Source: a virus. From it: DNA of 64,000 nt. The position numbers and the translations under genes are program-made. Positions 9,282 through 44,262 of this stretch are shown in pieces. Location of the stretch: the IMG/VR virus record IMGVR_UViG_3300007351_000003, positions 4,022-68,021 of that record; one strand, 5' to 3'. The notes beneath the pieces were generated by a model. It saw only the letters and a program-made list of their open reading frames with translations. It was not told the DNA's origin and made no database searches. Each line of letters opens with the position of its first letter. Within the stretch, counting starts at the first letter, position 1.

Positions 9282-9653
9282 CTAAAATGTTCCATCGAGG
9301 ATCCAGTCCTCGAGGCGCTCCAAAACATCATTGCTTGTATGCCCGTCCCATGCGGGAGCGAACTTCTTTTCTTCGATTCCATGCAGCATGTGATACATCG
9401 ATTCCGGGAGGTGATAGGTAATATCGCCTTTCGGCGTCCGCATGCCGGCTATGAACCAGCCCTCATGAAAACTGCCATCGTTATGCCGGAGTGACCGCCA
9501 GGACATCAACGGGTGGCTTTTCATCAGCGCGATGAAGATCAGGCACCTGTGCTGATAGAGTTCGCGGAACGTATGGCATCCGTCCGAGACGTCCTGAGCA
9601 TCGCCGACGACCTTCACCTGCTCGCCGTCAGGCATGAAAATCGTGTCGTTCAT
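9282..9653 (-). CDS. WDGH-motif phage protein
   Basis: HTFRELYQHR...ITYHLP...APAWDGHT. Confidence 0.7.
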   Translation of the reverse strand: MNDTIFMPDGEQVKVVGDAQDVSDGCHTFRELYQHRCLIFIALMKSHPLMSWRSLRHNDGSFHEGWFIAGMRTPKGDITYHLPESMYHMLHGIEEKKFAPAWDGHTSNDVLERLEDWILDGTF

Positions 9654-10081
9654 TCTGCGGTTACCGTGTCGACACCGAGACCAGTGTAGAGATCAAGCCG
9701 TGAGGCGATTTCGATCGCCTGCTCTGCTGTGGCGCCCATCTCCATTGCGGCCAGCGCGTAATCGGAGCCAGAACCGATAGCCCAAAACGGTTTGTTTATC
9801 TTTATAGGGAAAAGACCCATTTCATAACGATAAATCTCTTCGTTTTCTATAATGATCCCGACAAACCCTTGGTCTTTTTCCATTGAGGGTTTCTTATCGT
9901 TAGGTCGTCCTTCCTGAATCCAGTCAAAAAATCGTTGCGTATTATCAAATCCGCCCGACCATCCGCAAAGCAATGCGCCTATCTTGTGTATCTTTATTCC
10001 AGGAACGGGAGTCCCTCCGACATCAAACAACTTGTCTCCCGCTAATATTTTTTCATCCTTGCGATACGCAATAGTCGTCAT
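9650..10081 (-). CDS. HslV/proteasome-beta-like Ntn hydrolase
   Basis: M-TTIAY...LAGD, GWSGG, AIGSGSDYALAAM, AIEIASRLDLYT match the HslV motif order. Confidence 0.75.
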   Translation of the reverse strand: MTTIAYRKDEKILAGDKLFDVGGTPVPGIKIHKIGALLCGWSGGFDNTQRFFDWIQEGRPNDKKPSMEKDQGFVGIIIENEEIYRYEMGLFPIKINKPFWAIGSGSDYALAAMEMGATAEQAIEIASRLDLYTGLGVDTVTAE

Positions 10082-10294: not shown

Positions 10295-11257
10295 CTACAT
10301 CAGCCCCATAGGGGTCAAATTCGTTGTTTTTTCATGTGAGCGTTTTATGTGCTCACGCTTCCAGTCCTCGATCATCTTCTCATACTGAGTTTCGTGCGTA
10401 GTCGCCCGTGTAAGATCCCGAACTTCGACATCGTTCTTACGGTACGCCAGTTCCATCATCTTTTCGACCATTGTTTCATGATGTTCTGACTTGATCTCCG
10501 GCAGGCCGTCCATGGAACTTGTCGACAGGTCGGCCAGAGGGAATCTGATAACGTCCTGCTCAATCAGTTCGATGGCGCTGGACGGTGGGCGCACAATTAT
10601 TTCATTGCTTTCGTAGTCAGGAACGCCGTGGGATACCGTCCCGTTGGCTTCAGTTTCCCAGTCCGGAAACGAGGCGTCCATGTCTTCCTTGGTAAACAGA
10701 AAAAGCGATCTGGTCTGGCTGTAGGGCTTGAACCGAGTTATCCGGATAACCTTCTCGTGTAGGGTGAGATGCCGCTGCCCGATGGAAAGAACGTGCCGAC
10801 ACAGGCCGGTGAGATTCGTTACCGCTGCGGCCATCCCGCCGCTTGCCGTAGCTGTCAGGCTGTAGCCGGTCGTTGGGTATCCGGTTTGAGGGACCGCCTT
10901 GATAATGACCAATGTTCCACGTGAAACCGCGCGATAGTTCGGGGTGGAGGAATAGGCGGTGATATTCACTGCGAGGTTTGCGGCTGTGGTTGCCTCACTT
11001 GTGGCCCAGGGCACCGCTCCGGAGGTAATGGTCACGCCGGTCACGGACACGCTGTCAATCTGTCCGGCAGAGCCCGAAAGGTCGATGTACCCGATAGTGT
11101 CTGAGTCTTTAAGCAACTCGAGCCGACGCGCAATTTCACGCTCGGCACGGTTTGCATAGGAGACCAACTCCCACAACTGAAACCCTCTTTTACTGTCCGT
11201 GCCGCGCTCGTCGTCCATGCGCTTATAGAACAGATCACAAATGTCTTGTAGGTTCAT
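10295..11257 (-). CDS. Head-to-tail adaptor (tail tubular A-like) with inserted domain
   Basis: ELVSYANRAEREIARR N-terminus; PEIKSEHHETMV...AYRKND C-terminus. Confidence 0.65.
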   Translation of the reverse strand: MNLQDICDLFYKRMDDERGTDSKRGFQLWELVSYANRAEREIARRLELLKDSDTIGYIDLSGSAGQIDSVSVTGVTITSGAVPWATSEATTAANLAVNITAYSSTPNYRAVSRGTLVIIKAVPQTGYPTTGYSLTATASGGMAAAVTNLTGLCRHVLSIGQRHLTLHEKVIRITRFKPYSQTRSLFLFTKEDMDASFPDWETEANGTVSHGVPDYESNEIIVRPPSSAIELIEQDVIRFPLADLSTSSMDGLPEIKSEHHETMVEKMMELAYRKNDVEVRDLTRATTHETQYEKMIEDWKREHIKRSHEKTTNLTPMGLM

Positions 11258-12030: not shown

Positions 12031-13344
12031 CTATGCGATCGTGATGCCGGTGGCGTTTTGGTTCAGAATTCGCGCGGTGAACGCACCAGTATGGTTGTCC
12101 GCACCGGCACCGCCACGGGTGATCGCAACCTTAATGGTGAATGTATTGGGATCGCCCACGGCGCCAGCAATGGCGCTGGCCGTTACAACAACGCTGGTGA
12201 TCGCCTGACCGCCTGCGACGTTTGCAGCCGCACCGCCAATCGCCGACGAGACAGTGGCGACGGCATTGACGCCCGCCGTACGCACAACAACGATCTGGTA
12301 CTTTGAGTTGCGTGTCGCTTCACCCGCACCGATTGCGCCGCCCGCACCGAGTACCCCAAGGCAATCGACCTCGATGACTGCCGCATGCGCGGCGTTCGGG
12401 ATCGTCACGGTAAACACGTCCTTCGCCACCGTGTCGCTGAACGCCGTGATTGCCTTGGTGAGTTCTGTCTGGACTGCGGCTCCGCCGGGGACGCCGGTTC
12501 CGCCGATGGTCCGGGACGTTGTTGCGCGAAGCGTATCCACGGCCTTGTTTGCATCAGCCACGACGGTTTTGGCTGCTATGACCGTTCCGCCCGTCACGCC
12601 TGCGTTGACGTTCAGTTCTGCGGCCGTGGCTGTAACTGATGTTCCGGCACCAGCTCCGAGTTTCAGATCGGCAACGGCCAGCACGTCCACGTTCTTGTCT
12701 GCGCCGAGAGCAAGCGCTTTGCTTGCCACTGCTGTACCGGCAACCGATCCGTCGAGCAAGTTCAGTTCAGCCGCCGAAGCGGTCAGGCCGGTGATGGTGT
12801 CGGTTGCGGCTGATACATACCACAGGGTTGCAGACCGGCAGACGAATATTGCCATCTGGCCGGCGGTGATGGTGAACGCATTGCCAGCGCCGAGAGCGTT
12901 GATCTGCGTACCCGCAGCATCCGGGTAAACCGGGAGGGCATTGCTTGCGTTGGAATTGATAACCATGACGATTTTGTTTACAGCGGGAACGGGGAGAGAG
13001 ACCGCCTTGGTGCCATCTGCGCCCGTAACGACCGTGGTATCTGCCGTGATATCCGCTGCAGTTGCAAGGCTGTTACCCGTTGCCGCTAGGGTCGCCGTGG
13101 TTCCGGTTTCCGCCGACGTGAACGTGCAGGACGTAATTGAACCTGTGTTGACGTAGACATTGCCCGTTGCAGTATCGATCATCTGGCAGCCAACCGCATA
13201 ACCTGCCAATGCGCTCGGCAAGGTCGTACATGTGCCCAAAAGCACATTCTGGTACTTATCGCGTATATAAACCGATACCGTTGAGTGACCGTTCGGGAGA
13301 CCGTCAACCGTGATAACATTTCCTCTGAATTCATTTCTCTGCAT
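12031..13344 (-). CDS. Head fibre/decoration-type structural protein
   Basis: 437 aa Ala/Thr/Gly-rich; repeated TASAAELN/TATAAELN motif; AGGAGG SD. Confidence 0.65.
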   Translation of the reverse strand: MQRNEFRGNVITVDGLPNGHSTVSVYIRDKYQNVLLGTCTTLPSALAGYAVGCQMIDTATGNVYVNTGSITSCTFTSAETGTTATLAATGNSLATAADITADTTVVTGADGTKAVSLPVPAVNKIVMVINSNASNALPVYPDAAGTQINALGAGNAFTITAGQMAIFVCRSATLWYVSAATDTITGLTASAAELNLLDGSVAGTAVASKALALGADKNVDVLAVADLKLGAGAGTSVTATAAELNVNAGVTGGTVIAAKTVVADANKAVDTLRATTSRTIGGTGVPGGAAVQTELTKAITAFSDTVAKDVFTVTIPNAAHAAVIEVDCLGVLGAGGAIGAGEATRNSKYQIVVVRTAGVNAVATVSSAIGGAAANVAGGQAITSVVVTASAIAGAVGDPNTFTIKVAITRGGAGADNHTGAFTARILNQNATGITIA

Positions 13345-13440
13345 GATGTTCCTCCTGCCCCGCGATAAGCGGGATTGCTACCTGCTGGATTCGCCAGCAA
13401 ACGAAAATTGCGGCAAGGGCTTTACCCCTGCCGCATAAGA

Positions 13441-13989
13441 TTAGTCGTTGAAGTCTACGATCTCGGCAATAACGTCGATCACGACGGCACCAGCCGGGTT
13501 GGTAACCGTAACAAACGCAAGGTCGATGGTGTCGTCGGCAGCGTAATACTTGCCGCCCGAGGTAATGTACGCATCGGTTCCGTCAATGCCGTAGGTCCGG
13601 GTGCCAGCGGCGCCTTTGAGACTCATTGCGGCGTCAAAACTGGATGCGCCGTCGCCGTCGCCGATATTTGCCGTCAGAGCATCGCCGGTTGTAGGGGTTA
13701 CCATGATGATATGAACCTGTTTCACCAGCCAACCTGCCTTAACGTTCAAAATCTTCACGATATCGGAAGCAACCTGCAGGGCAAGCGGGATCGTGATACG
13801 CTTGCGGATGCGGGTAGTCTTTCCGATCGCATTGGCCGGGTAACCCGTCTGGCTGTCCGTCAGGTCCGTGGTGGTAACGCCGAACAGCCCGAACGCAAGC
13901 GCCGGGGTGAGCGCGCCGAAGCTGGCCATGACCGCGACTACCGCGACGAATGCCAGCGCAAACTTGTGTTTCAAAATGAATTTCTTCAT
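13441..13989 (-). CDS. Capsid decoration/cement-type protein with hydrophobic N-terminal leader
   Basis: Directly after MCP; GAGGAG SD; GGKYYAADDTIDL beta-sandwich motif. Confidence 0.65.
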   Translation of the reverse strand: MKKFILKHKFALAFVAVVAVMASFGALTPALAFGLFGVTTTDLTDSQTGYPANAIGKTTRIRKRITIPLALQVASDIVKILNVKAGWLVKQVHIIMVTPTTGDALTANIGDGDGASSFDAAMSLKGAAGTRTYGIDGTDAYITSGGKYYAADDTIDLAFVTVTNPAGAVVIDVIAEIVDFND

Positions 13990-14072
13990 GTCCTGGTCTC
14001 CTCTCTGCTTGAGAGATTTACCCGGCCCGGAGGCCGGGGTTAATGGTTATTGCCAAAAATCAACGGTTACGA

Positions 14073-15146
14073 TTAGCCCAGGCGAGCGTACAGGACGCCC
14101 AAGGATTCCGTCTTGATCACCTTCCAGTCGAAGACCTGGATACCGCGCATACCCTTGCCGGCCGTGTTTTCGAACTTATCGAAATAGGTCATGTCGGTCA
14201 GCTGGGCCGCAAACGTCACGCCGGACTTGTGGCCGAACGTGATGTTGTAGCAGGAGTAGGTATCCGAAACCGCGGTGTAAAGGTTTGAGATGTAAAGGTC
14301 GAAATCGTACAGGCTCTTGAAGTACCCGCCGCTCACCATGAACGAAGAGGCGGCGCCGGTCACACCGACGTCCTTCAGTTCCGAGGTGTCGAGCAGATAC
14401 TTCGCCCAGGTCGGAAGGACCATCCAGCGGCCTTCCTTGGGCCAGTTCTGCTCGTTCGCCACGGCCGCGCACTCGGCGATCTTGTCCGTGATATTGCCCT
14501 TGGTCAGGGGGATGGATGAGCCCGTGGTGCCGAGGTTGTAGGAACCGCTTTTACCGGCGGTCGTGCCCTGGTTGTCAGCATGCGCTTCGAGGTACACATC
14601 GGCCAGGAAGTCGGTATCGATGGCGATACGCATCTTCTCGCCGCCATGCTTGGTGTACTTGTCGAGGGTGCCCTTGTCGCCCAGCTGCGCGAGGGTCACA
14701 TCATCTAGGCGGAGAGCGAAATATTTCGATCGGTCGACCTTGAGTTCAACCTTCCCGCCGGCCAGCACCTGCCAGTTGATCGTGCCGTTTACCTCGTAAT
14801 TCGAGATGTCGATGTCGGGCAGGGTGTTGATGACAACGGTATCGCCCTTCTTCTTGATCATGCCCTCATAGTCGCTATTGGCCACAAACGGCGCAACGCT
14901 GACGTCGTAGAACACTTCCACGGTCTTGTCCGCGAACAGGACCGGGATCTCACCAGAGCCGGAAGCATAGGTGTAGTCCGGGGAGCCGGGGGCGCCTGCG
15001 ACAGTGCCGAACAGAAGGGGCAAGCCGAGACCGAACAGTGCGGTGGAGGCATCAGCCGTACCGCAGATACCGAGCGCATAGAGCGCAAGTACAACTCCGA
15101 GCACGACAAGGTTGATCGTGCTGATTTTTTTGATAAACTTTTTCAC
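14073..15146 (-). CDS. Major capsid protein (N4-gp56/P22-type HK97 fold) with hydrophobic N-terminal leader
   Basis: NSDYEGMIKKKGDTVVIN and GMRGIQVFDWKVIK motifs; GTG start with AGGAG SD; follows scaffold gene. Confidence 0.85.
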   Translation of the reverse strand: MKKFIKKISTINLVVLGVVLALYALGICGTADASTALFGLGLPLLFGTVAGAPGSPDYTYASGSGEIPVLFADKTVEVFYDVSVAPFVANSDYEGMIKKKGDTVVINTLPDIDISNYEVNGTINWQVLAGGKVELKVDRSKYFALRLDDVTLAQLGDKGTLDKYTKHGGEKMRIAIDTDFLADVYLEAHADNQGTTAGKSGSYNLGTTGSSIPLTKGNITDKIAECAAVANEQNWPKEGRWMVLPTWAKYLLDTSELKDVGVTGAASSFMVSGGYFKSLYDFDLYISNLYTAVSDTYSCYNITFGHKSGVTFAAQLTDMTYFDKFENTAGKGMRGIQVFDWKVIKTESLGVLYARLG

Positions 15147-15157
15147 TTTGGGTTCTC

Positions 15158-16327
15158 CTAACCCCTAATCCTCCCTTCTGCGCGTGCCAATGCGAATTCA
15201 TCAGACCAGTGCTGTTTTTCCTTCGCCAACTTTGCGGCTTCCTCCGCAGTCTTTCCGATCACGTTGTAGTAGCCGCTTCTGATCTTTTTGTTATGCGCAT
15301 CTACGTCAGCTTGGGAGTAGATGGGTTTTTTGTTGGTATTCAGGTCCCCTGCACCCGTCTGAGAAGCGGGCATCAGGTGACTTGGTTTTTTGTTTGGGTC
15401 TGCGACAGCCAGTGCTGCCTTGCCTTTCCATTCGACGAAAGACCTGTAGACTTCCGCCATTGTTACCGAATCTTTTGCCGCATGTGCTTCTTCCGCGATC
15501 TCCCGGATAGGTCTTTTGGTGCCCGCATCGATCATGGCCAGAAATTCAGGGAACTTCGGATTATTTACGATCGACAGCCTGACTGCCTCGCCTCCAACCA
15601 GTGCGTCCAGCGTTTCTATATACGAGGGGTCAACGCTTGGTGCCGCTGGTGCAGGTGGTGCTGCAGGTTGTGCCGGTGTTGCATGCACGGGAGCAGGAGC
15701 AGGTTGTTCTGCAGGCTTGGGGACCGTGGCAAGAACGGCGTCCACAATGGATTGTCTCCATGTGGCTACCTTTGCCGGGTCGGCTCCAAGTTCATCAGCC
15801 CAGTCCTTGTCGGCTTCGGTAATGGTTGCCTTCGTTACGTCTGCCTGTGCGGACTGAGGTTTCGCCTTCAACTCTGCTATCTGTTTCTCGAGGTCGGAGA
15901 CCGATGCTTTTAGCCGGTCATTCTCGGCCTTGAGTTCCCCTGTATTGGCGATTTGCCTTTTCAGGTCGGCGTTTTCCTTCATGAGCGGCTGGACTTCAGA
16001 GTTGTATTTCCCCTGAAGGATTCTGAGTGCCGCTGCCTGCCGGGTGATCGTGTCTACGGGGGATTCGCCCATCTTTGCGCCCTGGTCGTCCTTGGGAGCA
16101 GGTTCCGGGGTAATCGTGCCGCTGACCGGTGGTTTCGGTTCTGCGGGTGCCGGAGGAGCGGGTTGAGGTGCTGCCGGAGGAGTTGCCGGAGGCGGTTCTA
16201 CGGGAGCCGGGGGAGCCGGTGGGGTATTCCCTGGCGGTGTTCCTGCATTCGCTTCAGCAATCTTCTTCTCGTTTTCCTCAATGCGCTTCTTAATGTGTTG
16301 CGGTAACGCTGCTTTCGGTGCTGGCAT
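15158..16327 (-). CDS. Capsid scaffolding protein
   Basis: Pro/Ala-rich with coiled coil (LQGKYNSEV) and C-terminal ARAEGRI; ATG at 16327 with AAGGAG SD. Confidence 0.75.
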   Translation of the reverse strand: MPAPKAALPQHIKKRIEENEKKIAEANAGTPPGNTPPAPPAPVEPPPATPPAAPQPAPPAPAEPKPPVSGTITPEPAPKDDQGAKMGESPVDTITRQAAALRILQGKYNSEVQPLMKENADLKRQIANTGELKAENDRLKASVSDLEKQIAELKAKPQSAQADVTKATITEADKDWADELGADPAKVATWRQSIVDAVLATVPKPAEQPAPAPVHATPAQPAAPPAPAAPSVDPSYIETLDALVGGEAVRLSIVNNPKFPEFLAMIDAGTKRPIREIAEEAHAAKDSVTMAEVYRSFVEWKGKAALAVADPNKKPSHLMPASQTGAGDLNTNKKPIYSQADVDAHNKKIRSGYYNVIGKTAEEAAKLAKEKQHWSDEFALARAEGRIRG

Positions 16328-16451
16328 ACTGACTGTCTCCTTCTGCGATCCCTTTCGGGTGTTCGCTACGACGCAGAGCCCGTCAGGGTGTTCTGCGTTA
16401 AAATTGGTTCCCGCCGAGCCCGGAGGTCCAGGTATTCGGTCGAGAGAAAAC

Positions 16452-16505
16452 AAAAAAAGGCCGGACAGAAAGAAACCCTTTCGGGAATCCTTCCATCCGG
16501 CCTTC
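16452..16505 (-). terminator. Leader terminator 2 of head-gene transcript
   Basis: GAAGGCCGGA...TCCGGCC followed by T-tract. Confidence 0.65.
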
Positions 16506-21223: not shown

Positions 21224-21451
21224 CTAAGAATTTCGCGATTCGATGAATTGTTTTTTCAGATACAGATACCCGAGGGATTCACCCTGCAGCCACCTGGATG
21301 TTACGTTTTCGATCGCCGCTCTGCTCTGCTTGAGCGAGTCAATCTCCATTGCGTCCAGCAGTTCAACGAGTTTTTGCCCATCCCCCCGGTTTGGAGAGTC
21401 AACCATGATCCGGGAGAGCAGTTTTCTCTGATCGTCCTTGAGTGTCATCAT
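21224..21451 (-). CDS. Small portal-adjacent protein
   Basis: 75 aa coupled to portal stop; RWLQGES motif. Confidence 0.55.
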   Translation of the reverse strand: MMTLKDDQRKLLSRIMVDSPNRGDGQKLVELLDAMEIDSLKQSRAAIENVTSRWLQGESLGYLYLKKQFIESRNS

Positions 21452-23649
21452 TATGCGGCTACCCCTTTCTTTTGCTGCATTGTAGAATAATCACGTCCTG
21501 CTACACGCTCACCAGATGGAGAAAGCGGCTGCATTGGTTTCATGGGGCGCTGCTCACCGCTCTGCGGCGTCATCTCGCCGTTTTCTCCGGTCAGTTGATC
21601 AATCTGTTCTTGTTCCTCGGGGAGGATTTTGTCACGGTCCAGCCCGGGGAGGCTTTTCATTGCATCCCTGAGCATGTGACGGCGCCCGGTCATGCCGATG
21701 ATTGCCATGTCGACAGGGTTATTTGTATTCCGGAGCATTTCATTCATGCGGATAATCGTCTGCTCACGCACGATCAGCGCAGATGATCCTTTTGCGACCG
21801 GCTTCATGTCCCCTGCGGGAGGCTCCGCAGAATCATCGTTATCCATGATGTAATAGGATTCGGCTTCAACCGAGGGTTCCGTCAGTCCGCGGTCAATGTG
21901 CTCAATCACAGCCTTAATACCCCTCGACGACTGCGACAGGAGCATGGATGTTGCCGAGGCTGTGTCTATGTTCGCCGGGGTTGATCCCCCGTGCGCGAAC
22001 TTTGGCACTCCGGAGTCAAAATCAGCGAGGTTCATGAGGAAATCGTAGAAATCGGCGAGAGGGCCGACTATCAGCTGTACTTGGTAGAACCGGAGGGCCG
22101 GCGCATTGGCCTGCATTTGGTTTGTCGTGACGTAGAACCGCTTGTACGGATGGAGCGGGCTTTTGTCCGGGCATCTTTCCTGGTCCTGTTCAATAATAGG
22201 ACCGGATGCCATGGCCGCATTGATGCCGCATGCCCGGAATACCGCGTTTGCCGTGACCTGATGCGCCCAGAGAACGTCGGGAATAGCCTGACCCCAGAAC
22301 TTGTCGGGATCTTCAATGAATGATGCCTTATAATAATTGATCTTTCCGTCTGCGTTCGGGTTGAGACGGGCCATAATGACATGATTGCCGATGAGGATGC
22401 AGTAAACGCGATACCATTTGTCGAGGTCGGTAATAATCTCACCGCTTTTATTCATCCCCCACTCGACCAGTATGCTGCCCGGCGCCGTGCCCCAGTAAAT
22501 GAGCGCGTCGACATTATCACCCATATACATCGTGTTCGTGGACTTGTTGTCCAGTGCGGCAACGCGGGAATCGATCGCCGTCCATTCCCGGAGGGCTCCA
22601 TTCCCAGCTTCGCGCAGTACCGCTCGGATCTCGTTGTCGTCAAACCCGTCTACTCCAAGCATTCCTTGCAGGTCCAGCGGGGAGTACTGAGTTTTTTCAA
22701 TCAGTCCGTCCTGACAACTTCTGGCTCCTACCAACGGATAAACGTTGATTGGGGAAACGCGCGAGAACTTCTCATGCACCACATTTTCAAATGCGAACTT
22801 ACGCTTCCCGGTTGCCGGATCGAACGGTCTGGTGCGCTTCACAACCATACGTTCTTCCGGTCCCTTGACGAAACAGGCCGGGAATGTCACGATATCATGG
22901 ATAATCTCACGGATAGCGTTATACCACCCTCCCTCTTTCAGTTTGTCGTCTACCTTGACTTCAAACTTTTCCGTTAATTCCTTGGCCATCTGGAGCGTTT
23001 GGCGGTGTATTTCGTCAACTTTGGCCTTGAGCGCAGCCGCAACTTGTTGGGCCACCAACTCTTCTACCTCGGCGTCCATGGCCTCGACGTCATAATTGCC
23101 CCGCGCCGTGTGCTTTTGGGCGACCATCTGGGCAACCTGACGGCCGAATGTCTGACGGACCTCTTGCTCGATCTGTTGTCCATATGCCATCTGGACCGTT
23201 TGTTCGATTTCTGGAGGGAGGTCGGGGTCCGGGGTGTTCTCAATGCCGAACGGTCGGGTACCGGCTTGGAAATATACGTCCATGATCCAGTCTTCCCCCG
23301 CACGGCACTTGGTTTCGATCACCGGCATGTACGGAGGCTCCCAGTCTTTCCCGTGCAGAATTGCGATTTCTGCCAGCTTCTTCGCATCGTACTCCAATGC
23401 TCTCGCCTGTTTTGCCCGGATCATCCGTTCTTCGATGCCAGAGGAAATTCGTTCCTGCTTGGCTCGATCGAATTGACCGCGGACAAACGACGCCAAACTG
23501 TTGATCAGGCCGGCATTGGTCTGAGGTGTCGGCACCGGGACGGGTGCTGCCTGAGCGTTTACGGCCGGCAACGTTGGGAGCGGTGCGCTCCCTGCCATCA
23601 CCGGGATGATTCCTTTCTGCATTTCTGCGGGAGATATTGGAGTTATCAT
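21451..23649 (-). CDS. Portal protein
   Basis: About 730 aa downstream of terL; FSRVSPINVYP, KFWGQAIPD, DFDSGVP motifs; ATG at 23649 preferred over the track start 23679. Confidence 0.85.
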   Translation of the reverse strand: MITPISPAEMQKGIIPVMAGSAPLPTLPAVNAQAAPVPVPTPQTNAGLINSLASFVRGQFDRAKQERISSGIEERMIRAKQARALEYDAKKLAEIAILHGKDWEPPYMPVIETKCRAGEDWIMDVYFQAGTRPFGIENTPDPDLPPEIEQTVQMAYGQQIEQEVRQTFGRQVAQMVAQKHTARGNYDVEAMDAEVEELVAQQVAAALKAKVDEIHRQTLQMAKELTEKFEVKVDDKLKEGGWYNAIREIIHDIVTFPACFVKGPEERMVVKRTRPFDPATGKRKFAFENVVHEKFSRVSPINVYPLVGARSCQDGLIEKTQYSPLDLQGMLGVDGFDDNEIRAVLREAGNGALREWTAIDSRVAALDNKSTNTMYMGDNVDALIYWGTAPGSILVEWGMNKSGEIITDLDKWYRVYCILIGNHVIMARLNPNADGKINYYKASFIEDPDKFWGQAIPDVLWAHQVTANAVFRACGINAAMASGPIIEQDQERCPDKSPLHPYKRFYVTTNQMQANAPALRFYQVQLIVGPLADFYDFLMNLADFDSGVPKFAHGGSTPANIDTASATSMLLSQSSRGIKAVIEHIDRGLTEPSVEAESYYIMDNDDSAEPPAGDMKPVAKGSSALIVREQTIIRMNEMLRNTNNPVDMAIIGMTGRRHMLRDAMKSLPGLDRDKILPEEQEQIDQLTGENGEMTPQSGEQRPMKPMQPLSPSGERVAGRDYSTMQQKKGVAA

Positions 23650-23669
23650 ATAGCCCTCAAGTACTTCAG

Positions 23670-23900
23670 TTAAACCCAAACGATATTTATTCCCAAAACG
23701 GTTGTAATGCCTGCCTCAAACTGCTCGCGAAAATGCCGTTTTGATAATTTGACATACCTTCCTGCGCGAGGCATGCCTTTGCTATCGGCGTGTTTTACCC
23801 GTGGTAACATAATTTCAACCAGCGGCATTACAAGACGCACTTTCTCGTCGATCTCGCAAAGGGTACGCTCTAAGATTTCCATCCGGTCAAGAGTTGTCAT
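23670..23900 (-). CDS. Small hypothetical protein
   Basis: 76 aa, ATGA-coupled. Confidence 0.55.
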   Translation of the reverse strand: MTTLDRMEILERTLCEIDEKVRLVMPLVEIMLPRVKHADSKGMPRAGRYVKLSKRHFREQFEAGITTVLGINIVWV

Positions 23901-24208
23901 GCGTTCCCCTCATACTTCATCTTGAAACGAATTCGTGCATGTTCCGCAACTAACTCTCTCCAATTTGCAGGCGGTTCTGGCATTTCGTGCTTTAAAGCAA
24001 AGTAACAGGATTCGCCGTTCTTGTGCGTTGCCAGTCCACGGGTACCGTAACCGAAAGTCTCGAGTCTGAACGTTTCTACATAAAACACTGTAAACTCTTC
24101 AGGCTTTTCCTCTCTCCACCCAAGGGCTGGGACAGTGGGAACAGTAACCGCAACGACTGCACCTATCATTGCTTTCAGGAAGCCACGTCTTGAAATGTCA
24201 TTCATCAT
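23897..24208 (-). CDS. Small protein with twin-arginine (Tat) signal
   Basis: MMNDISRRGFLKAMIGAVVAV; ATG 24208 with AAGGGG SD. Confidence 0.65.
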   Translation of the reverse strand: MMNDISRRGFLKAMIGAVVAVTVPTVPALGWREEKPEEFTVFYVETFRLETFGYGTRGLATHKNGESCYFALKHEMPEPPANWRELVAEHARIRFKMKYEGNA

Positions 24209-24666
24209 GCGTTCCCCTTGATATGTTTTGAGCTGATGACGATGTTCGACGTCTGCAGCGGTATCATCATCTGCGGCAGCAACTGCCCGTTCTTCATCTT
24301 CCGATCCGGGAACGATACCAGCGGCTGATACTCCGGTTTCTTTCTCGGATCCGGGTTGTGGAGCACTTTCATGATCCATGTGCCGGTCAGTTCCGGTTTC
24401 TTCCGAACGTTCACATGCAGGACCACGATGTTCATGAACTGCATGCGGCGCTTGAGGTCTTCCATGGGGAGGTTTAAGTCCCGGGCTCCGATCACCCCGC
24501 AGTGCTCCTCGAGGAATAACCTAACGTTGCCTTCTAAGTCCGCATGCGCCTTCGAAATCATCTTCTGCAACTTGGGACTGGCTAGGATGATCTGCTTCCC
24601 CTGCTCCCCGCGCAGTTCTTCGGGCAGGATCTCGACGCCGGTTAAAAGTCCGTTCTTGGCGGCCAT
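24205..24666 (-). CDS. Hypothetical protein
   Basis: 153 aa, stop overlaps next start. Confidence 0.6.
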   Translation of the reverse strand: MAAKNGLLTGVEILPEELRGEQGKQIILASPKLQKMISKAHADLEGNVRLFLEEHCGVIGARDLNLPMEDLKRRMQFMNIVVLHVNVRKKPELTGTWIMKVLHNPDPRKKPEYQPLVSFPDRKMKNGQLLPQMMIPLQTSNIVISSKHIKGNA

Positions 24667-24748: not shown

Positions 24749-25666
24749 TCATTGCGCCTTCCTTTCTGTGGAGGTCGACCCGGATGCTTTCTCTGCGCTC
24801 GGAGTGCATTCGGCACATTTCCCAACCGTCTCGTTTGTGCTGCATGAGCATGGTACCGGCTCTGTCTTTCGAATGATACTGGACGGATTGTCAAAGGGGT
24901 AATGCTTGAACGGTGTAGGGTCTTTAAATTCCATTGGCCGCCCCGGTTTCAAGTTCCCCAGATCGATCTTCGGAGCGCACCCTTGTTTTTCTCTGACTTG
25001 ATTACGAGCATACAGTGCCCGCTCGATTGCATATTTCGTTCGTTCTGCCGTTGATCTCCCTTGGTTACGCTCACATATTTTTTTGAATGTGGCATCCAGA
25101 TCTCCAAGTCCATCGTAATAATCTCGCAATTCCTTCTCGTGCTCTTCACGAATAATGTCATCAAGGATTGCAACTGTTTCGGTTGATATAATGTTTCCTT
25201 CTGTCGCTGTCGGTTGCGGCGCGCAGGACTTGCAGTAGTAGGGAGTGACGATACGCTCCTCTCTGGTGGGTTCAAACGTACCTGAAAGTGTCATAAATCC
25301 CGTCTTTTCCTCAATGAACGATTTACCCCTGACCGCCTTCTCTTGCTTCACCATGCAGCCGCAGGTGGCGCAGTCGATGGTATTGGTTGCGCCACTCTTA
25401 AATAATTCTTTTAGGAATTCAATCTCCTCTCTGGTCATCGGAGTCGGTTTCTCGGGAGTTGCAGCGCATGCGTCGGTAGCTGCACGTGCGAGGTTCGGAA
25501 TACCAGACATACTTTCTGCCACGTCGTGCAGCATGCTCACTGTTTTCGCAAAATACTTTGCGGCCTGCATATGCTGTATCCGCATGTACTGAATAAAATT
25601 AGTCGCCACTAACGTAGCCAGCAACACCCCCAATATCACGAGTACAACAATCGGTAATGTAATCAT
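24749..25666 (-). CDS. Membrane-anchored hypothetical protein with CxxC motifs
   Basis: N-terminal TM helix; CATC, CKSC, CAEC. Confidence 0.6.
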   Translation of the reverse strand: MITLPIVVLVILGVLLATLVATNFIQYMRIQHMQAAKYFAKTVSMLHDVAESMSGIPNLARAATDACAATPEKPTPMTREEIEFLKELFKSGATNTIDCATCGCMVKQEKAVRGKSFIEEKTGFMTLSGTFEPTREERIVTPYYCKSCAPQPTATEGNIISTETVAILDDIIREEHEKELRDYYDGLGDLDATFKKICERNQGRSTAERTKYAIERALYARNQVREKQGCAPKIDLGNLKPGRPMEFKDPTPFKHYPFDNPSSIIRKTEPVPCSCSTNETVGKCAECTPSAEKASGSTSTERKAQ

Positions 25667-25867: not shown

Positions 25868-26200
25868 TCAGCGCACCGGCACCCCGGTATTGGTTTTTAC
25901 CTGCACGCAGCGGTCGTCCCAAATTTCATCAAACCGCATGCTTTTCTCGTTCGTGACCTCGAGATGCCCGATCCCCTGCTTGGACAGCCAGTCCTTGACA
26001 AACGGAACGGCATCAGGATTATCAGCGCGCGCCGTGAAAATAACGACCTCATGACCATGCTTGAGCCAGGCCTTAACTCTCCTGAGCATCCCCGGGACCG
26101 GAGCCCCGATGTGCTCAATGCCCATCCACCCGCCATATTTGGCGAGCGTACCGTCCAGGTCGACGGCATAAACTTTACGGTCTGAAAACAGGCTTTTCAT
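25868..26200 (-). CDS. HAD-superfamily phosphatase
   Basis: AVDLDGTLA motif I, IFTAR motif II, WDDR motif IV; ATGA overlap with terL stop. Confidence 0.8.
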   Translation of the reverse strand: MKSLFSDRKVYAVDLDGTLAKYGGWMGIEHIGAPVPGMLRRVKAWLKHGHEVVIFTARADNPDAVPFVKDWLSKQGIGHLEVTNEKSMRFDEIWDDRCVQVKTNTGVPVR

Positions 26201-27954
26201 ACCAGTGCTCCAGCCGGCACCGTCGGGCCCATCGTGCTCCCGGACATCACTGCCCTGATCACGCTGGGGAGAGGTAGCCGCTTCCGAACCCACTGCCCGA
26301 TCGCGTAGGATATCACCCGGTCGTCGAAACAACCGGACTCGGCGCCTATCGTCCCGTCATCGTTGTGCTTCATGGACATCATTTCCCAGTACGTTTCTGG
26401 GCAGACGATGCCCTCGGCACCCTGATTAAAAAGCTCTACTAGGCCGTCAATAACGAGTGACTTCGCGTCTCCGTACTTCCCGCCCTTAGTCACCCATCCA
26501 TAACGCTTAACGGGCATATGCGGAGGATTCGGCTGGGTTTCTGCGTAAATGTTCGGGTACGCCATCTCTACCAGCTTCCCGACCACGGCTGTACCATGAT
26601 TGTTTCTCTCGGGCACCAACCAGGCTGTGTTATACCTGTACCCCAGATGTGCGAGCAAAATACCGAATTGCACGGCGTCAATACGTCCATGCCATTGAGC
26701 AACCTGTTTCCCTGTCAGTTGTTCAATCACATCGGCGTTTGAAAAATCCGCATGCTTGCTGGTGATCATGATGCCTTCGGCAACGTCTGCGGAAATCAAA
26801 TAGGGCACCCCGGGCTTCGGTTCTTCCCACACCTGCAGCAGTTTATCGGTATCGCCGGCAAGCGGGTTCTTCGCTATGAACTGGCCGATAGAGGTTAAAC
26901 ACTCGTAATATGCAACGGGCTTTTTGCATGCCTTCCGCCGGTCGTCGGCTTTTTCTGCGTCTACAATCGGACGCCCAGAGGCAAGGAAAGCCTCTTTCGC
27001 ATTACTCGGATACTCCTGGCGGAAAATTCTTTCATCGCCGCGGCATTTGTTCTGGATCGCCCAGCGACGATATTGTAGATGGCAATCGTTGATGCCGTAT
27101 CTAACAACCATCTCCTGTTCATACGGCGTTCTGGTAAACCCGGGCTCGGGATCCATCTGGTATTTCGGGAACACGAACCACGGGATAAACACGCTCGAGA
27201 ATTCATTGTCTTTGTCGGCGTCGGGGTTGACTGTGCAGCGGAAGTCGGGGTTGCCGTCTCTGCCGATGAAAACCTCATACCGGTACCGGGCCGCCCAGTA
27301 GTTGTCGTGGAACTCGCCGCCGGTCCCGGCTGCGGTGCTTTCTCCGATGATCTCAGTGTCTGGCTCGTCAGGAACGCACTGAATAAGCGAAGTCAGCAGG
27401 GCTGAAACCGTGTGCTTCGGCCACTTGGCCAATTCGCTCAAATGCAGATAATGAATCAACTGGCCGGAACCGAGGTGTAGTTTCCCCGCCGTGCCCACGC
27501 GGATCGCGGAGTCGAGGCCGGTGCCTTCTTTGGTGTTGAATTCGAGGATTGATGTGTTATTGAATCGGGTCTTTGGTTTCAGAGGAGCATGGTCGTAATA
27601 CCGCTTGACCATGCCGAAAATAAAATCAGTGGCGTCCGGCTCGTGGGTCACATGCATTGCATACCGGTTTCGTGCGTGGGTTGTTTTGTGATAGAAGCAT
27701 CCCGTTGTGTCTGTAGATATTCCTTCGCGCCGGGCTTTCAATACCCACATGCGCAACAGCCTACCGTTATTAACAATGTCGCGCTTGATTTTGTGGAGAA
27801 CCAACTGGACGGGGTTGAAAGTAAAGTCAATCAGGTCGCCTTCTGGGGTCTGAATCTTCAGGTTGGCGGGCGCATACTTTTCGAAATCAAGTCCAACCTC
27901 GATCATTTCGTCGGTGATTTCGAATTTACTATGTTGAGTTTCGGTATCGATCAA
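26197..27954 (-). CDS. terL: Terminase large subunit
   Basis: LKARREGIST (Walker A), LHLSE (Walker B), GESTA motif C, ISADVAEG and FDDRVIS nuclease motifs. Confidence 0.93.
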   Translation of the reverse strand: MIDTETQHSKFEITDEMIEVGLDFEKYAPANLKIQTPEGDLIDFTFNPVQLVLHKIKRDIVNNGRLLRMWVLKARREGISTDTTGCFYHKTTHARNRYAMHVTHEPDATDFIFGMVKRYYDHAPLKPKTRFNNTSILEFNTKEGTGLDSAIRVGTAGKLHLGSGQLIHYLHLSELAKWPKHTVSALLTSLIQCVPDEPDTEIIGESTAAGTGGEFHDNYWAARYRYEVFIGRDGNPDFRCTVNPDADKDNEFSSVFIPWFVFPKYQMDPEPGFTRTPYEQEMVVRYGINDCHLQYRRWAIQNKCRGDERIFRQEYPSNAKEAFLASGRPIVDAEKADDRRKACKKPVAYYECLTSIGQFIAKNPLAGDTDKLLQVWEEPKPGVPYLISADVAEGIMITSKHADFSNADVIEQLTGKQVAQWHGRIDAVQFGILLAHLGYRYNTAWLVPERNNHGTAVVGKLVEMAYPNIYAETQPNPPHMPVKRYGWVTKGGKYGDAKSLVIDGLVELFNQGAEGIVCPETYWEMMSMKHNDDGTIGAESGCFDDRVISYAIGQWVRKRLPLPSVIRAVMSGSTMGPTVPAGALV

Positions 27955-28535
27955 CTCTTTTTCCCCTGTGACTCTTTCCGCTTTTGCTCCAGCCGGTCGA
28001 TGTACGCTGAGAAAGGATCCTCGACTACCACGGTGGAACGATAAATCCCCAGACGCTTGCCTTTCATGTCTAGGGCTTTCAGTTTGTCATAAACCTTCAG
28101 GTTGGTGACTTTGATGAGCGGCTTACTGCCATTACCCCCGCCGACCTGCGTATGCTCAATTTCGTGAATTATGGCCAGTTGCTCGTCAGTAAGCTCGCTG
28201 ATGTCTTTGAGAGTTCCATCGGGCTTATAGAAATCATGATGCCCGCGGTAGAAAGCGATCATGTCAATTTCTCGGTCCCAATCTTCCGCAGTTTTAATGG
28301 CCTTATTTTCCACTTTGGCCATAAGCTCTTGAATTCGCTTCTGAACCTTTGCTAAAGCTAACCATTTGGCTGCGACCACATCTGGGTTTTTAGCCTTACT
28401 CCCCGCCCGCCTTGCGGCCTCGGCGCCTTTCCCCTTCATGCCGCCCAACTCCACGTATTTAAAGCAGAAAAACTCTTGAGCCTGAGTTAGTTTGTCACGC
28501 TTGGGGGTCTTCCTTTTCTCCCTAGCTTTTGCCAT
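27951..28535 (-). CDS. terS: Terminase small subunit
   Basis: LTQAQEFFC...AEAARRAG HTH; KVYDKLKALDMKGKRLG; directly upstream of terL. Confidence 0.85.
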   Translation of the reverse strand: MAKAREKRKTPKRDKLTQAQEFFCFKYVELGGMKGKGAEAARRAGSKAKNPDVVAAKWLALAKVQKRIQELMAKVENKAIKTAEDWDREIDMIAFYRGHHDFYKPDGTLKDISELTDEQLAIIHEIEHTQVGGGNGSKPLIKVTNLKVYDKLKALDMKGKRLGIYRSTVVVEDPFSAYIDRLEQKRKESQGKKS

Positions 28536-41271: not shown

Positions 41272-44262
41272 CTATGCGTGGGCATAAACCGCATGATTGG
41301 CGTAATTTGCCTTCACCAGTGCTGCCGCGATCCCTGGGCATACCGAATTACCGCACAGTCTTACCTGTGCTGTTTTGGTGAATGGCTTACCGTGCATATC
41401 GTGCTCGATAATATAGGTGTCGTAGAATCCCTGAGCACGGAATATTTCGCGTGGCGCGAGCATGCGGAGACCTATATCAATGATTTGGTAGTCTTCCCCG
41501 TGGACCTTTACTAAACCGAAACGATCTCTTGTTGAAATTGTATTAATTGGCTTCCGTATGTCATGGGATTCACTGGCTGCATGGTATTGCAAGAGGAATG
41601 CCCGGACTTCTCCGAAGTGAAGGCCGCCAGCCGTGATTGTCTGCAGCGGTTCACGTGAGTCCTGACCGATATTCGTACCCTTGAGCTTAACCAAGTGTGA
41701 CGTTACAAGGCTGTCTTTGTCACGTTGAGTAACCGTCCGCACTGGTTCGTCGGCAGCATATCCTATGCTCGATCCCATGTATCGAACAAGACTCGCGGCT
41801 ACCAGGGAATGATGGTCTACTGACGTGACCGTGCCGAGCGGCATTTCAACCTGCGAGCCCACGACTCCGCCGTAGTGTTTGGCGAGGAAGGCAGAAACGA
41901 GGGCATGCCTTTGAGTTGCGGTAATTGTTGGTAGTGGATCATCGACAGGATGGCAACGGTCCTCGTCACCTTTTGAAGAATAGAGTGAAGACAAAACAGG
42001 AGATACCAGCGCCAGCTCTCCCCGGTGCGCAGCGGTTATCGTCGGAAATGGGTCTTTAATATCATTGGTCCTATCGCCTCCCTGATGGGTCAGTGGAATA
42101 AGATGTGGCATGACGAGTGCGCTGTCTGCCTTTGCCGTAACCGTTGCAACAGGTTCCTCTATATGCCTCGGCCTTGACTGTCCTGCCCGTCCGCCAACTC
42201 CTATTATATGGGGCGCAACGAGCGCAAAGTGTCCGCCCTTTGTCTCCGCACAGATAGTTCTGAGCGGTTCATCAATGGGCATAGAACGCGGCGATGATCC
42301 GTTGGCGTGCTCAGTAATATACGGGACTACCAGTCCGTGCCGGTTCTCCGTAGTTTGCGTTGCCAGCGGATCGCCAACAGATTGCCCGCGGAACTCTCCG
42401 CCCTTATCGCCATAGTACGTCACGATAAACGGCTCAGTCGAATCTGTGACATACCGCTTAATACCCATGGCAATGCGGCGTTGCGTGGCTTCGGCCAGCG
42501 GTTTCTTGCGCTCGAATATAGACGGCGCGGGAATATCCCATTGGATGCACTCGGCCGCAGTTCTCCAAGGCAGGAGTTTTCCACTCTTTACGGCTGCGCT
42601 TTTCGGGTCACCATGTGTCGGCTCGGGCCACACAATAGGCTGTCCGTCTGAGCGGGCAATGAGAAAGAGACGCTTCCGGATGGTCGGGTCGCCATAATCA
42701 CAAGCCCTGAGCATTTTATGGTCAACTTCGTAACCATTTTTACGGAGGGCATTGAGAAACGAACGGAAGGTTCGGCCCTTGCGTTTCGGACACGGGTACT
42801 GCTTGCCGTCCGTTTTGGTGATCAGCGGTCCCCAAGTGATGAATTCCTCGACGTTCTCGAGCATGATTACCCGTGGTTTTACCGTAGCAGCCCAGCGGAG
42901 AACTACCCAGGCAAGCCCACGGATCTTCTTACTGACAGGTTTCGTGCCCTTGGCCTTAGAGAAATGTTTGCAATTATGAACGACAATACCTTCAACAATG
43001 TAGCTTTCATCGTCCTCGACGCCAATATTAAAAACATCGGTTTCAACAACTGCGGGTTCCTGGCTACGAATAGGACACCACTCAAGGCCACTCTCGGCAA
43101 TAGTTTGACTATGACCATCAACAATATTTTCTCGCCATCGAAGCAGGTAAATTGGCCTCGCGTTGACAATTCGGCCTTGAATTTCATTGCTGTTTTGTAA
43201 AAGATGAACTGTGACTGTTTTCCCAAGAGAATTCAGGAGGGCTTTGATTCCGAAAGCGAGGTGTTTGGATACCGTGCGGCATTCGGTAAATTGTTTTCCT
43301 GCCCATCCATCCGCAGAAAGGTATCCGTCAAGCAAAGACTGTTTAAAGGCTGGTCCGATACCGAGTGCCCAAGCTGGAATTCGTTTTGACTCGGCCCTGT
43401 GCCCAAAGTGTTCTCGTAACCATTCCACTAAACCACGGTGGTTTGTACTGAATTGATATGCTGTACCAGTCTCCCGCTCGTGCCACGCCAACTCATTAAA
43501 ACCGGCACGTTCTCCTTCACGCATCCATGTGTTGATTGTCTGGCGAAGTTTTTCTACCTCATGCTTACCGCAGGTGAGAACCAATTCAGCGCGTGTATCT
43601 GTGAGGCGTGTCCAGCCGTCTCCAAGGTAACGACCAACAAGCCACATAAAGCGGTTGTCTGCAACCATGCCGCGACCCAACACAGGAGGTATTGTTGACG
43701 CCGGGAAGGTCGTAGGAGTTGCCCAATACCACCCTTTTGTGAGAAGCGATGCTGGTGCCCAGCCAGCGTCTCCCAGAACACGCCCATATCCTCGAGGTTC
43801 GGTACACCATACGCTTTTACGATGACGAACATAGAATGGATGCTCAGGACTCACAAGTAACCCGGGATGCCCATGTCCCTTAATTGACATCAACGGCTTG
43901 CGTGTATGAGATACCTCTGTTACCCGTCCCCAACGCAGTTTATGTGTGAGTACTTCATCGCCAACTTCGATTTCTTCAATGGCTTGATAGCCCCGGCGCG
44001 TGAGTACCAGTGTTCCTGCCGGGAAACAGTCCGGGCTGAACCATGCCAGGCCGACGGGCCTGCCGGCGCATTCAACCATCGGGTTGACTTTCCACACGTC
44101 TTCCCGGAGATGCTTTGTGAACGGGTGATTTACCTGATGCATCCGGATCGCGTCCGCATCGTGGTTTACAGCGATATCGATCGGGCGCCCAAGGGCCCGC
44201 TCTATCCCCGTTGATGCTCCGCCGCCGCCCGCAAAATTATCGACTACGATTTCTCCTGTCAT
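41272..44262 (-). CDS. C5 cytosine DNA methyltransferase interrupted by an intein
   Basis: DNFAGGGG motif I; SPD|C motif IV; LENVEEF; RKRLFLIAR; CGNSV; EPLxTIT repeats. Confidence 0.93.
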   Translation of the reverse strand: MTGEIVVDNFAGGGGASTGIERALGRPIDIAVNHDADAIRMHQVNHPFTKHLREDVWKVNPMVECAGRPVGLAWFSPDCFPAGTLVLTRRGYQAIEEIEVGDEVLTHKLRWGRVTEVSHTRKPLMSIKGHGHPGLLVSPEHPFYVRHRKSVWCTEPRGYGRVLGDAGWAPASLLTKGWYWATPTTFPASTIPPVLGRGMVADNRFMWLVGRYLGDGWTRLTDTRAELVLTCGKHEVEKLRQTINTWMREGERAGFNELAWHERETGTAYQFSTNHRGLVEWLREHFGHRAESKRIPAWALGIGPAFKQSLLDGYLSADGWAGKQFTECRTVSKHLAFGIKALLNSLGKTVTVHLLQNSNEIQGRIVNARPIYLLRWRENIVDGHSQTIAESGLEWCPIRSQEPAVVETDVFNIGVEDDESYIVEGIVVHNCKHFSKAKGTKPVSKKIRGLAWVVLRWAATVKPRVIMLENVEEFITWGPLITKTDGKQYPCPKRKGRTFRSFLNALRKNGYEVDHKMLRACDYGDPTIRKRLFLIARSDGQPIVWPEPTHGDPKSAAVKSGKLLPWRTAAECIQWDIPAPSIFERKKPLAEATQRRIAMGIKRYVTDSTEPFIVTYYGDKGGEFRGQSVGDPLATQTTENRHGLVVPYITEHANGSSPRSMPIDEPLRTICAETKGGHFALVAPHIIGVGGRAGQSRPRHIEEPVATVTAKADSALVMPHLIPLTHQGGDRTNDIKDPFPTITAAHRGELALVSPVLSSLYSSKGDEDRCHPVDDPLPTITATQRHALVSAFLAKHYGGVVGSQVEMPLGTVTSVDHHSLVAASLVRYMGSSIGYAADEPVRTVTQRDKDSLVTSHLVKLKGTNIGQDSREPLQTITAGGLHFGEVRAFLLQYHAASESHDIRKPINTISTRDRFGLVKVHGEDYQIIDIGLRMLAPREIFRAQGFYDTYIIEHDMHGKPFTKTAQVRLCGNSVCPGIAAALVKANYANHAVYAHA
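42973..44028 (-). mobile_element. Intein (352 aa) with LAGLIDADG homing endonuclease
   Basis: CFPAGTLV start, IVVHN end, +1 Cys; GRYLGDG and DGYLSADG motifs. Confidence 0.92.

Follow-up and report, generated by a model that had tools for sequence, protein, structure and literature searches.

Transmembrane-like leaders on the major capsid and cement proteins of an uncultured short-tailed phage suggest a membrane-tied start for shell subunits

The heads of tailed phages are, in the textbook account, assembled from soluble cytoplasmic subunits. Why, then, should two shell proteins of one such phage each begin with a hydrophobic leader that resembles a signal peptide or a membrane anchor? The question is raised by a 64-kb stretch of DNA (hereafter the window; positions 4,022 to 68,021 of IMG/VR virus record IMGVR_UViG_3300007351_000003), whose minus strand carries the late module of a short-tailed phage; the full record, from an uncultured phage, comprises 83,217 bp and is estimated to be 93% complete, and no sequencing run was listed as containing the region. 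A preliminary description of this DNA quoted such leaders on the major capsid protein (MCP) and on a decoration protein, and proposed membrane-tethered capsid assembly or the export and processing of head proteins. Both N-termini are as it quoted them, except that the start codon of the MCP is GTG and not ATG. Judged by their composition and conservation, the leaders suggest that shell subunits start tied to the cell membrane, and a cleavable membrane-anchoring propeptide is the reading favored here.

Behind their leaders, both proteins look like ordinary head proteins. The MCP matches the major head protein profile phrog_267 (E 1.2e-29, residues 62-353), its relatives carry PF25209 (Phage_capsid_4), and its tblastn matches include the annotated MCPs of two cultured phages, Rhizobium phage RHph_TM3_14A (36% identity) and Puniceispirillum phage HMO-2011 (28%), which share the MCP family and the scaffold-MCP gene order with the window (the MCP of HMO-2011 being the product of gene 47). 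The AlphaFold model of the MCP (predicted local distance difference test, pLDDT, 76) is matched by Foldseek with a probability of 1.00 to many phage capsid chains, with Che8, P-SCSP1u, HRP29, T7, SU10, and GP4 at the top, and is predicted to have the HK97 fold. Homology to phrog_267 and to the cultured-phage MCPs begins only after residue 58-68, which bears out the idea that the leaders are add-ons. For the 182-aa protein encoded directly downstream of the MCP, in the same order as in HMO-2011, profile searches returned no family match; its AlphaFold model (pLDDT 68, moderate) is a jelly roll, a small β-sandwich, and its top Foldseek matches in the PDB are the small capsid-entry chains 8h89_J of Ralstonia phage GP4 (E 7.7e-6) and 7eel_H of cyanophage Pam1 (E 6.9e-5), followed more weakly by cement proteins of Helicobacter phages, among them KHP30 and the KHP40 entry named "Trimeric cement protein" (7dou, rank 45, E 0.017). 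The product of HMO-2011 gene 46, a small jelly-roll gene, aligns with it at 25% identity and begins MADTFTTT, in register with the VTTT that follows the leader in the window. In view of the jelly-roll model, the PDB matches, and the gene order, "decoration protein" appears correct and cement protein more exact, with binding on the capsid being predicted. Unlike the window, HMO-2011, RHph_TM3_14A, GP4, and Pam1 lack the leader altogether, and their proteins begin where the window's leaders end.

The two leaders, 47 and 37 residues long, share a layout. In the MCP, a basic start (MKKFIKK) is followed by an uncharged helix of transmembrane length (residues ~8-29), a polar loop (GTADAS), and a second hydrophobic stretch running into LPLLFG, the two hydrophobic parts being separated by a short acidic, Gly-rich loop; AlphaFold places helices at residues 10-24 and, after a break, at 33-40 and 42-45, ahead of a disordered N-arm. 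The cement leader opens with MKKFILKHK, continues with 28 uncharged residues around a central G..P, ends in FGLFG, and has no charged residue beyond residue 10; here AlphaFold draws a helix at residues 2-23, broken at residue 8, and then a low-confidence linker. The uncharged run after the basic start measures 19-28 residues across both leaders. As a rough estimate on a hydrophobicity scale, the best 19-residue window of the MCP leader has an apparent insertion energy of -0.97 kcal/mol, against +8.5 in the mature part, and that of the cement leader -0.64 kcal/mol; throughout the window's clade, the corresponding values for both proteins do not rise above ~1 kcal/mol, and all those of the mature parts exceed 6. 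In that clade, the uncharged stretch spans 17-21 residues in the MCP and 26-33 residues in 10 of 12 cement leaders (17 in the other two), with 0-1 charged residue over 28-40 residues of leader and 2-5 Lys/Arg among the first 12 residues of nearly all long forms. When all open reading frames (ORFs) of the 83-kb genome were scanned for a basic N-terminus followed by a hydrophobic stretch, these two adjacent genes were the only real genes to emerge, and portal, scaffold, and terminase subunits came out without a leader. Familiar special classes do not fit either: the window MCP has L-G-I-C, reminiscent of a lipobox, of which the Cys is not kept in homologues, and cement leaders have no Cys motif; the twin-arginine motif S/T-R-R-x-F-L-K is absent, RR occurring in neither leader; and the hydrophobic segment precedes the Gly instead of following it as in type IV prepilins.

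Both leader starts are preceded, 8 nt upstream, by the strong Shine-Dalgarno sequences noted earlier (AGGAG and GAGGAG). Neither junction with the mature part has an in-frame ATG or GTG nearby, or a start preceded by a Shine-Dalgarno sequence, and the next Met of the MCP is residue 95, within the fold; the leaders must therefore be translated. Translation from a downstream start, which the preliminary description had named as the finding that would undo its idea, thus has no candidate site in the window; an internal start giving a leaderless isoform was considered and set aside there, a Met at -2 or -1 occurring only in some relatives. Nor are the leaders without conservation, the other doubt raised at the time, as they are kept in 26 MCP homologues (40-79% identity) and 12 cement homologues. 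They are 38-53% identical among homologues, against 68-83% for the mature parts, and their ratio of nonsynonymous to synonymous change (pN/pS) is 0.37-0.60 (0.56-0.60 in the MCP), against 0.19-0.25 for the mature parts of both proteins. The leaders are real and under purifying selection, and a leader that evolves faster and is selected nonetheless appears to behave as propeptides and signal sequences do.

Where the leader ends is equally well marked. Of the 43 metagenomic MCP homologues compared, most with 40-79% identity retain the leader, and 12 of 13 cement homologues carry one ending in F-(A/G)-G before VTTTD, the remaining protein (P0061) starting at the junction. A family profile search of 1.84 billion representative proteins recovered 4337 MCP family members at E≤1e-3; of the best 150 of these, ~130 are leaderless and start at the junction, and a few clusters have hydrophobic leaders. 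In leaderless homologues, the initiating Met falls precisely on Gly47 of the MCP (beginning M-SV, M-TV, M-PF, and the like) or on Gly37 of the cement protein, so that the position after LFG is a true boundary in both proteins, as first proposed. In the IMG/VR loci, leaderless genes have their own Shine-Dalgarno sequence and no open frame upstream, and the leaderless state is thus not an effect of gene calling. Across the family, three features are retained, namely an MK-x-F start, the charge-free stretch, and an end motif; the last is shared by both proteins across more than 50% divergence and reads Pro, 2-4 hydrophobic residues, F/M, and G, followed by T/V/I. The LFG singled out earlier is indeed present in both leaders of the window, as one instance of this broader motif. 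Of the AxA sites proposed after the first hydrophobic segment, the small residues are kept and the AxA sequence is not. The -1 position is Gly (rarely Ala) almost throughout; at -3, L, M, F, V, or A predominate.

Leaders come and go easily. On a tree of 178 mature MCP domains, no fewer than 8 gains or losses are needed, and supported branches force 7 of these; leaders cluster in the window's clade (21 of 35) and are found in three separate small groups besides. Leaders are present on both proteins in the window and in L004 and L028-31, on neither in L005-7, on the cement protein only in L008/9, and on the MCP only in L010/11, L027, and L032; whether one of the two proteins has a leader is independent of the other. 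Taken together, the gain/loss count and these mixed states indicate that the leader is probably dispensable for the capsid lattice. Two observations on the relatives may be added here. In a separate group with leader-bearing MCPs (L014, L015, L016, L019, and L020), the cement-like proteins encoded after the MCP have an N-terminal extension of 45-60 residues that is basic and not hydrophobic, apparently a different kind of add-on. The leader-bearing relative in L032 (L032:1-9000) lies at the end of a 238-kb bacterial contig, where it adjoins genes for an extracytoplasmic function (ECF) sigma/anti-sigma pair and a ferredoxin; as a prophage or remnant, it could identify a host.

What could such leaders be for? 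By its composition, the leader would belong in the membrane. A removable propeptide, and not a lattice element, is suggested in turn by the fixed junction with a small residue in front of it, by the fast yet selected evolution of the leader, and by its easy gain and loss. Only one MCP gene was found in the phage, and scaffold, portal, and terminase are leaderless; the MCP body must thus remain in the cytoplasm, where ATP-driven packaging by the terminase takes place, and secretion of the whole protein cannot be its fate. We therefore favor, with a probability of roughly 0.4, leaders that serve as a cleavable membrane-anchoring propeptide released by a host protease, and not as secretion signals; membrane insertion, topology, cleavage, and the host protease are all steps that we infer. 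Both proteins would be made as precursors whose basic start stays in the cytoplasm while the uncharged segment inserts into the inner membrane, as a helix-loop-helix hairpin in the MCP and as a single long kinked or re-entrant segment in the cement protein. The folded body would face the cytoplasm, the site of action of scaffold, portal, and terminase, and the precursor pool held at the membrane might be concentrated or kept assembly-incompetent until cleavage at, or one residue before, the junction between (hydrophobic)-(F/M)-G and T/V releases it, leaving an N-arm that would match in position that of the leaderless relatives.

The insertion and processing machinery would most likely be the host's, given the easy gain and loss of the leader and the lack of a co-varying phage protease: no other gene in the interval from portal to scaffold follows the leader in its occurrence, and profiles for S26 signal peptidase, S78 (HK97-type) and S49 proteases, rhomboid, and Prp have no match in the 83-kb genome. 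A 241-aa gene after the portal was rejected as a leader-specific factor, being found only in L028-30 and L017 and missing from L031 and L004. Several points weigh against the propeptide. We know of no protease for a hydrophobic-F-G site followed by T at the cytoplasmic face or within the membrane. In the MCP leader, the second hydrophobic stretch is too weak for insertion alone, and the cement leader has no clear second helix, so that the topology with both ends in the cytoplasm is a model only. The shortest forms, in L027 (21 aa, on a contig of a Geobacter metagenome-assembled genome, or MAG) and P0028 (9 aa), keep the end motif only and cannot span a membrane; the motif may thus serve some function itself. 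Leaders farther from the window's clade measure just 20-30 aa and resemble ordinary cleavable Sec signal peptides.

Known systems offer partial likenesses. In the M13 gene VIII protein (procoat), a filamentous-phage coat protein is inserted as a hairpin, and the helix, acidic loop, and second helix of the MCP leader resemble that arrangement; here, by contrast, the passengers are a cement protein and a 310-residue HK97-fold shell protein that must assemble in the cytoplasm. A bolder version of the propeptide, which we regard as rather unlikely, is that this clade builds its HK97 shell from membrane-inserted, procoat-like precursors freed by a host membrane protease, and that the released two-helix, Gly/Ala-rich leader peptides, tens of thousands per cell, accumulate in the membrane and could act as a holin-like lysis timer coupled to the capsid; head assembly would then be membrane-coupled through the coat protein itself. 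Like the delta domain of HK97-type phages, the MCP leader is an N-terminal part that would be absent from the mature lattice and that evolves faster than the shell domain. Delta domains are charged, coiled-coil, scaffold-like segments of ~100 residues that need a phage protease of the S78, S77, or S49 type; the window leader, in contrast, is uncharged, stands beside a separate scaffold gene, and comes from a genome in which S78 and S49 find no match.

A closer parallel is Staphylococcus phage 80alpha, in which N-terminal leaders on the capsid and scaffolding proteins are cut by the host protease Prp; these leaders have 13-14 residues, are not hydrophobic anchors, mimic ribosomal protein L27, and are cut between F and A (PMC5744158). 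In both phages, two head proteins carry an N-terminal extension with a shared Phe-containing end motif; in 80alpha, too, the role of the leader is unclear, and the motif is patchy on non-homologous proteins of other phages. 80alpha is thus a precedent for a processing enzyme of the host and not of the phage, as we suppose for the window leaders. These differ in being 37-47 residues long and transmembrane-like, in ending F/M-G before T/V with no L27-like motif, and in sitting on the MCP and cement protein instead of the scaffold. Prp (PF04327) was absent not only from the phage but also from two related virus records and from the Geobacter MAG, the sole candidate host genome that holds a relative.

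The strongest of the other explanations takes the leaders for true Sec-type signal peptides cut by signal peptidase I, so that both proteins, or at least the cement protein, would be exported to the periplasm and cement would bind capsids only once the compartments mix at lysis. The general build agrees with it: a basic n-region, a hydrophobic core, a helix breaker (Pro 5-9 residues before the junction), a small Gly or Ala at -1, and an acidic or neutral early mature region whose first 19-26 residues carry no positive charge. In the clade, a small-x-small site directly behind the first helix is found in most MCP leaders, the cement leaders of L008/L009 and the MCP leaders of L010, L016, and P0122 look like textbook signal peptides, and patchy gain and loss would suit a generic host pathway. 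Cleavable signals, however, have a hydrophobic core of ~7-15 residues, which fits distant leaders (L010, L014-16) and not the anchor-length stretch of the window's clade (19-33 uncharged residues); the mostly large residues at -3 (L, M, F) would be unusual for signal peptidase I, and an end motif conserved in sequence is atypical of its sites. The sole MCP found has to meet the leaderless scaffold, portal, and terminase in the cytoplasm, and the export of head proteins suggested earlier is hard to reconcile with this for the MCP. Sec export is thus unlikely as a general account and most plausible for the cement protein alone.

A slightly smaller chance is given to leaders that are retained as structural elements, those of the MCP bundling inside the shell under the capsomers as a hydrophobic, delta-domain-like or internal component and those of the cement protein bundling on its trimers. 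The forms reduced to the end motif (P0028 and L027) suggest that this motif may be part of the N-arm and not a cleavage site, profile searches of the phage genome identified no protease, and in 80alpha cleavage of the capsid protein leader is dispensable (PMC5744158). Yet close lattices work without the leader in every MCP/cement combination, and the leader changes at 2-3 times the rate of the parts that form the lattice. Its charge-free, transmembrane-like sequence is unlike known soluble scaffolding or delta domains, and an aqueous particle would pay a high price for hundreds of hydrophobic helices exposed on or within it.

Less probable still is a cytosolic role without the membrane. The leader would then be a handle for a chaperone or holdase, of the type of SRP (the signal recognition particle), trigger factor, SecB, or DnaK, or else a tag for degradation or timing by which free subunits are prevented from assembling too early or from meeting host sensors, and the A/U-rich MKKF start would double as a translation enhancer. 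MK-x-F is kept at the very start of both proteins family-wide, with A/U-rich codons, and a common chaperone for two leader-bearing head proteins has been proposed by the authors of the 80alpha study (PMC5744158). An uncharged segment of 20-30 residues with a negative insertion energy would, however, be captured by membrane targeting in any bacterium, and the conserved Gly junction would be left unexplained. Capture of such hydrophobic segments by SRP-type targeting is established.

Could the phage bring its own peptidase? An HslV-like ORF of the window had been put forward as the maturation protease that cuts after LFG. It lies in the virion module and begins M-TTIAYR, with a putative Thr1 like that of N-terminal nucleophile (Ntn) hydrolases, though its Pfam Proteasome match (E 0.007) is below threshold. 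It belongs to a mini-HslV/proteasome-beta-like family of ~140 aa with 226 detectable homologues that recurs in the head modules of SU10-like podophages; a 49%-identical copy occupies the same place in the related phage L031, and the member in L035 directly follows the portal gene, a typical position for a prohead protease. Co-occurrence with the leaders, expected at first, fails in both directions. In the P0008 phage (L028-30, 79% identical), which has both leaders, the syntenic region lacks the gene, and no family member on its 92-kb contig is among the homologues listed; nor did the gene turn up in two further leader-bearing virus records or in the Geobacter MAG. Conversely, L034 and L035 have it beside leaderless MCPs, and in L033 it is part of a bacterial locus. 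The gene is unlinked to the leaders, and the HslV-like protease, very improbable as the enzyme that cuts them, was rejected as leader peptidase on these grounds. Least credible of all is an annotation artefact with real starts downstream and leaders never made: only the general unreliability of start calls speaks for it, against strong Shine-Dalgarno sequences at the leader starts and none at internal candidates near the junction, and against a frame, hydrophobicity, and motifs kept across saturated synonymous divergence with pN below pS.

The genes and elements discussed here are collected in Table 1. Scaffold (the first gene), MCP, and cement protein form one unit; the scaffolding assignment is based on a weak PF06810 (Phage_scaffold) match and on gene position, and scaffold homologues lie upstream of the MCP gene in L004 and L028-31. 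The position of the MCP Shine-Dalgarno sequence on the scaffold stop codon suggests translational coupling.

Table 1. Positions in the window of the late genes, leaders, and signals, with the loci of mini-HslV family members in relatives
Feature	Positions	Strand	Remarks
Small terminase	27951-28535	minus	
Large terminase	26197-27954	minus	
Portal	21451-23679	minus	
Scaffolding protein	15158-16453	minus	coiled-coil, Pro/Ala-rich, without leader
MCP Shine-Dalgarno AGGAG	15155-15159	minus	overlaps scaffold stop codon
MCP	14073-15146	minus	357 aa, GTG start
MCP leader, residues 1-47	15006-15146	minus	
MCP junction codons, Gly47-Thr48	15003-15008	minus	proposed processing site; start point of leaderless homologues
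Cement Shine-Dalgarno GAGGAG	13998-14003	minus	
Cement/decoration protein	13441-13989	minus	182 aa, ATG start
Cement leader, residues 1-37	13879-13989	minus	
Terminator-like hairpin	13409-13435	minus	12-bp stem and T run; closes scaffold-MCP-cement unit
SU10-type adaptor	10295-11257	minus	head-closure protein also in late module
HslV-like ORF	9653-10081	minus	
Mini-HslV member, L031	14815-15249		
Mini-HslV member, L035	10001-10441		
Mini-HslV member, L034	5392-5964		
Mini-HslV member, L033	10001-10468		

Some further features of the window deserve mention. A GC-rich hairpin with no T run (14024-14041) lies between the MCP and cement genes and may set their expression ratio. Directly downstream of the cement gene, an Ala/Thr/Gly-rich ORF of 437 aa (12031-13344, minus strand) is conserved only in its first ~80 residues in the relatives L004, L005, L012, L028, and L031; it looks like a head or tail fiber with a conserved anchor and a variable distal part. 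Between large terminase and portal, an ORF of 305 aa (24749-25666, minus strand), for which no family match was found, has a hydrophobic N-terminal anchor and several Cys pairs. A smaller ORF between terminase and portal (23897-24379, minus strand), with a weak PF10518 match (E 0.004), has an internal start that yields a twin-arginine-type signal, MMNDISRRGFLK, and then a hydrophobic stretch; the idea that it is a copy of a piece of the MCP was rejected (BLASTP against the MCP, E 0.41). Farther away, the ORF at 41272-44262 (minus strand) encodes a 996-aa C5 cytosine methylase split by a Hint/intein-type domain (PF00145 and PF13403).

A keyword search of the literature found no description of a transmembrane-like or signal-like leader on an HK97 MCP, which is not proof of absence, and the only membrane contact of tailed-phage heads known to us is through the T4 portal. 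The leaders would extend the range of capsid-protein propeptides, and would be categorically new if membrane-coupled shell assembly holds. Annotators should not take every signal-peptide call on an MCP for an error. The system can be tested by expression of two genes, and its fixed junction gives exact peptides for searches of proteomes. Coat and cement proteins bear a conserved, selected, transmembrane-like leader, which on the MCP side is spread over at least 26 lineages and many metagenomes. Some phages thus either use the membrane and a host protease to control shell assembly or have hydrophobic segments inside their particles, and a new step in capsid maturation would be added in both cases.

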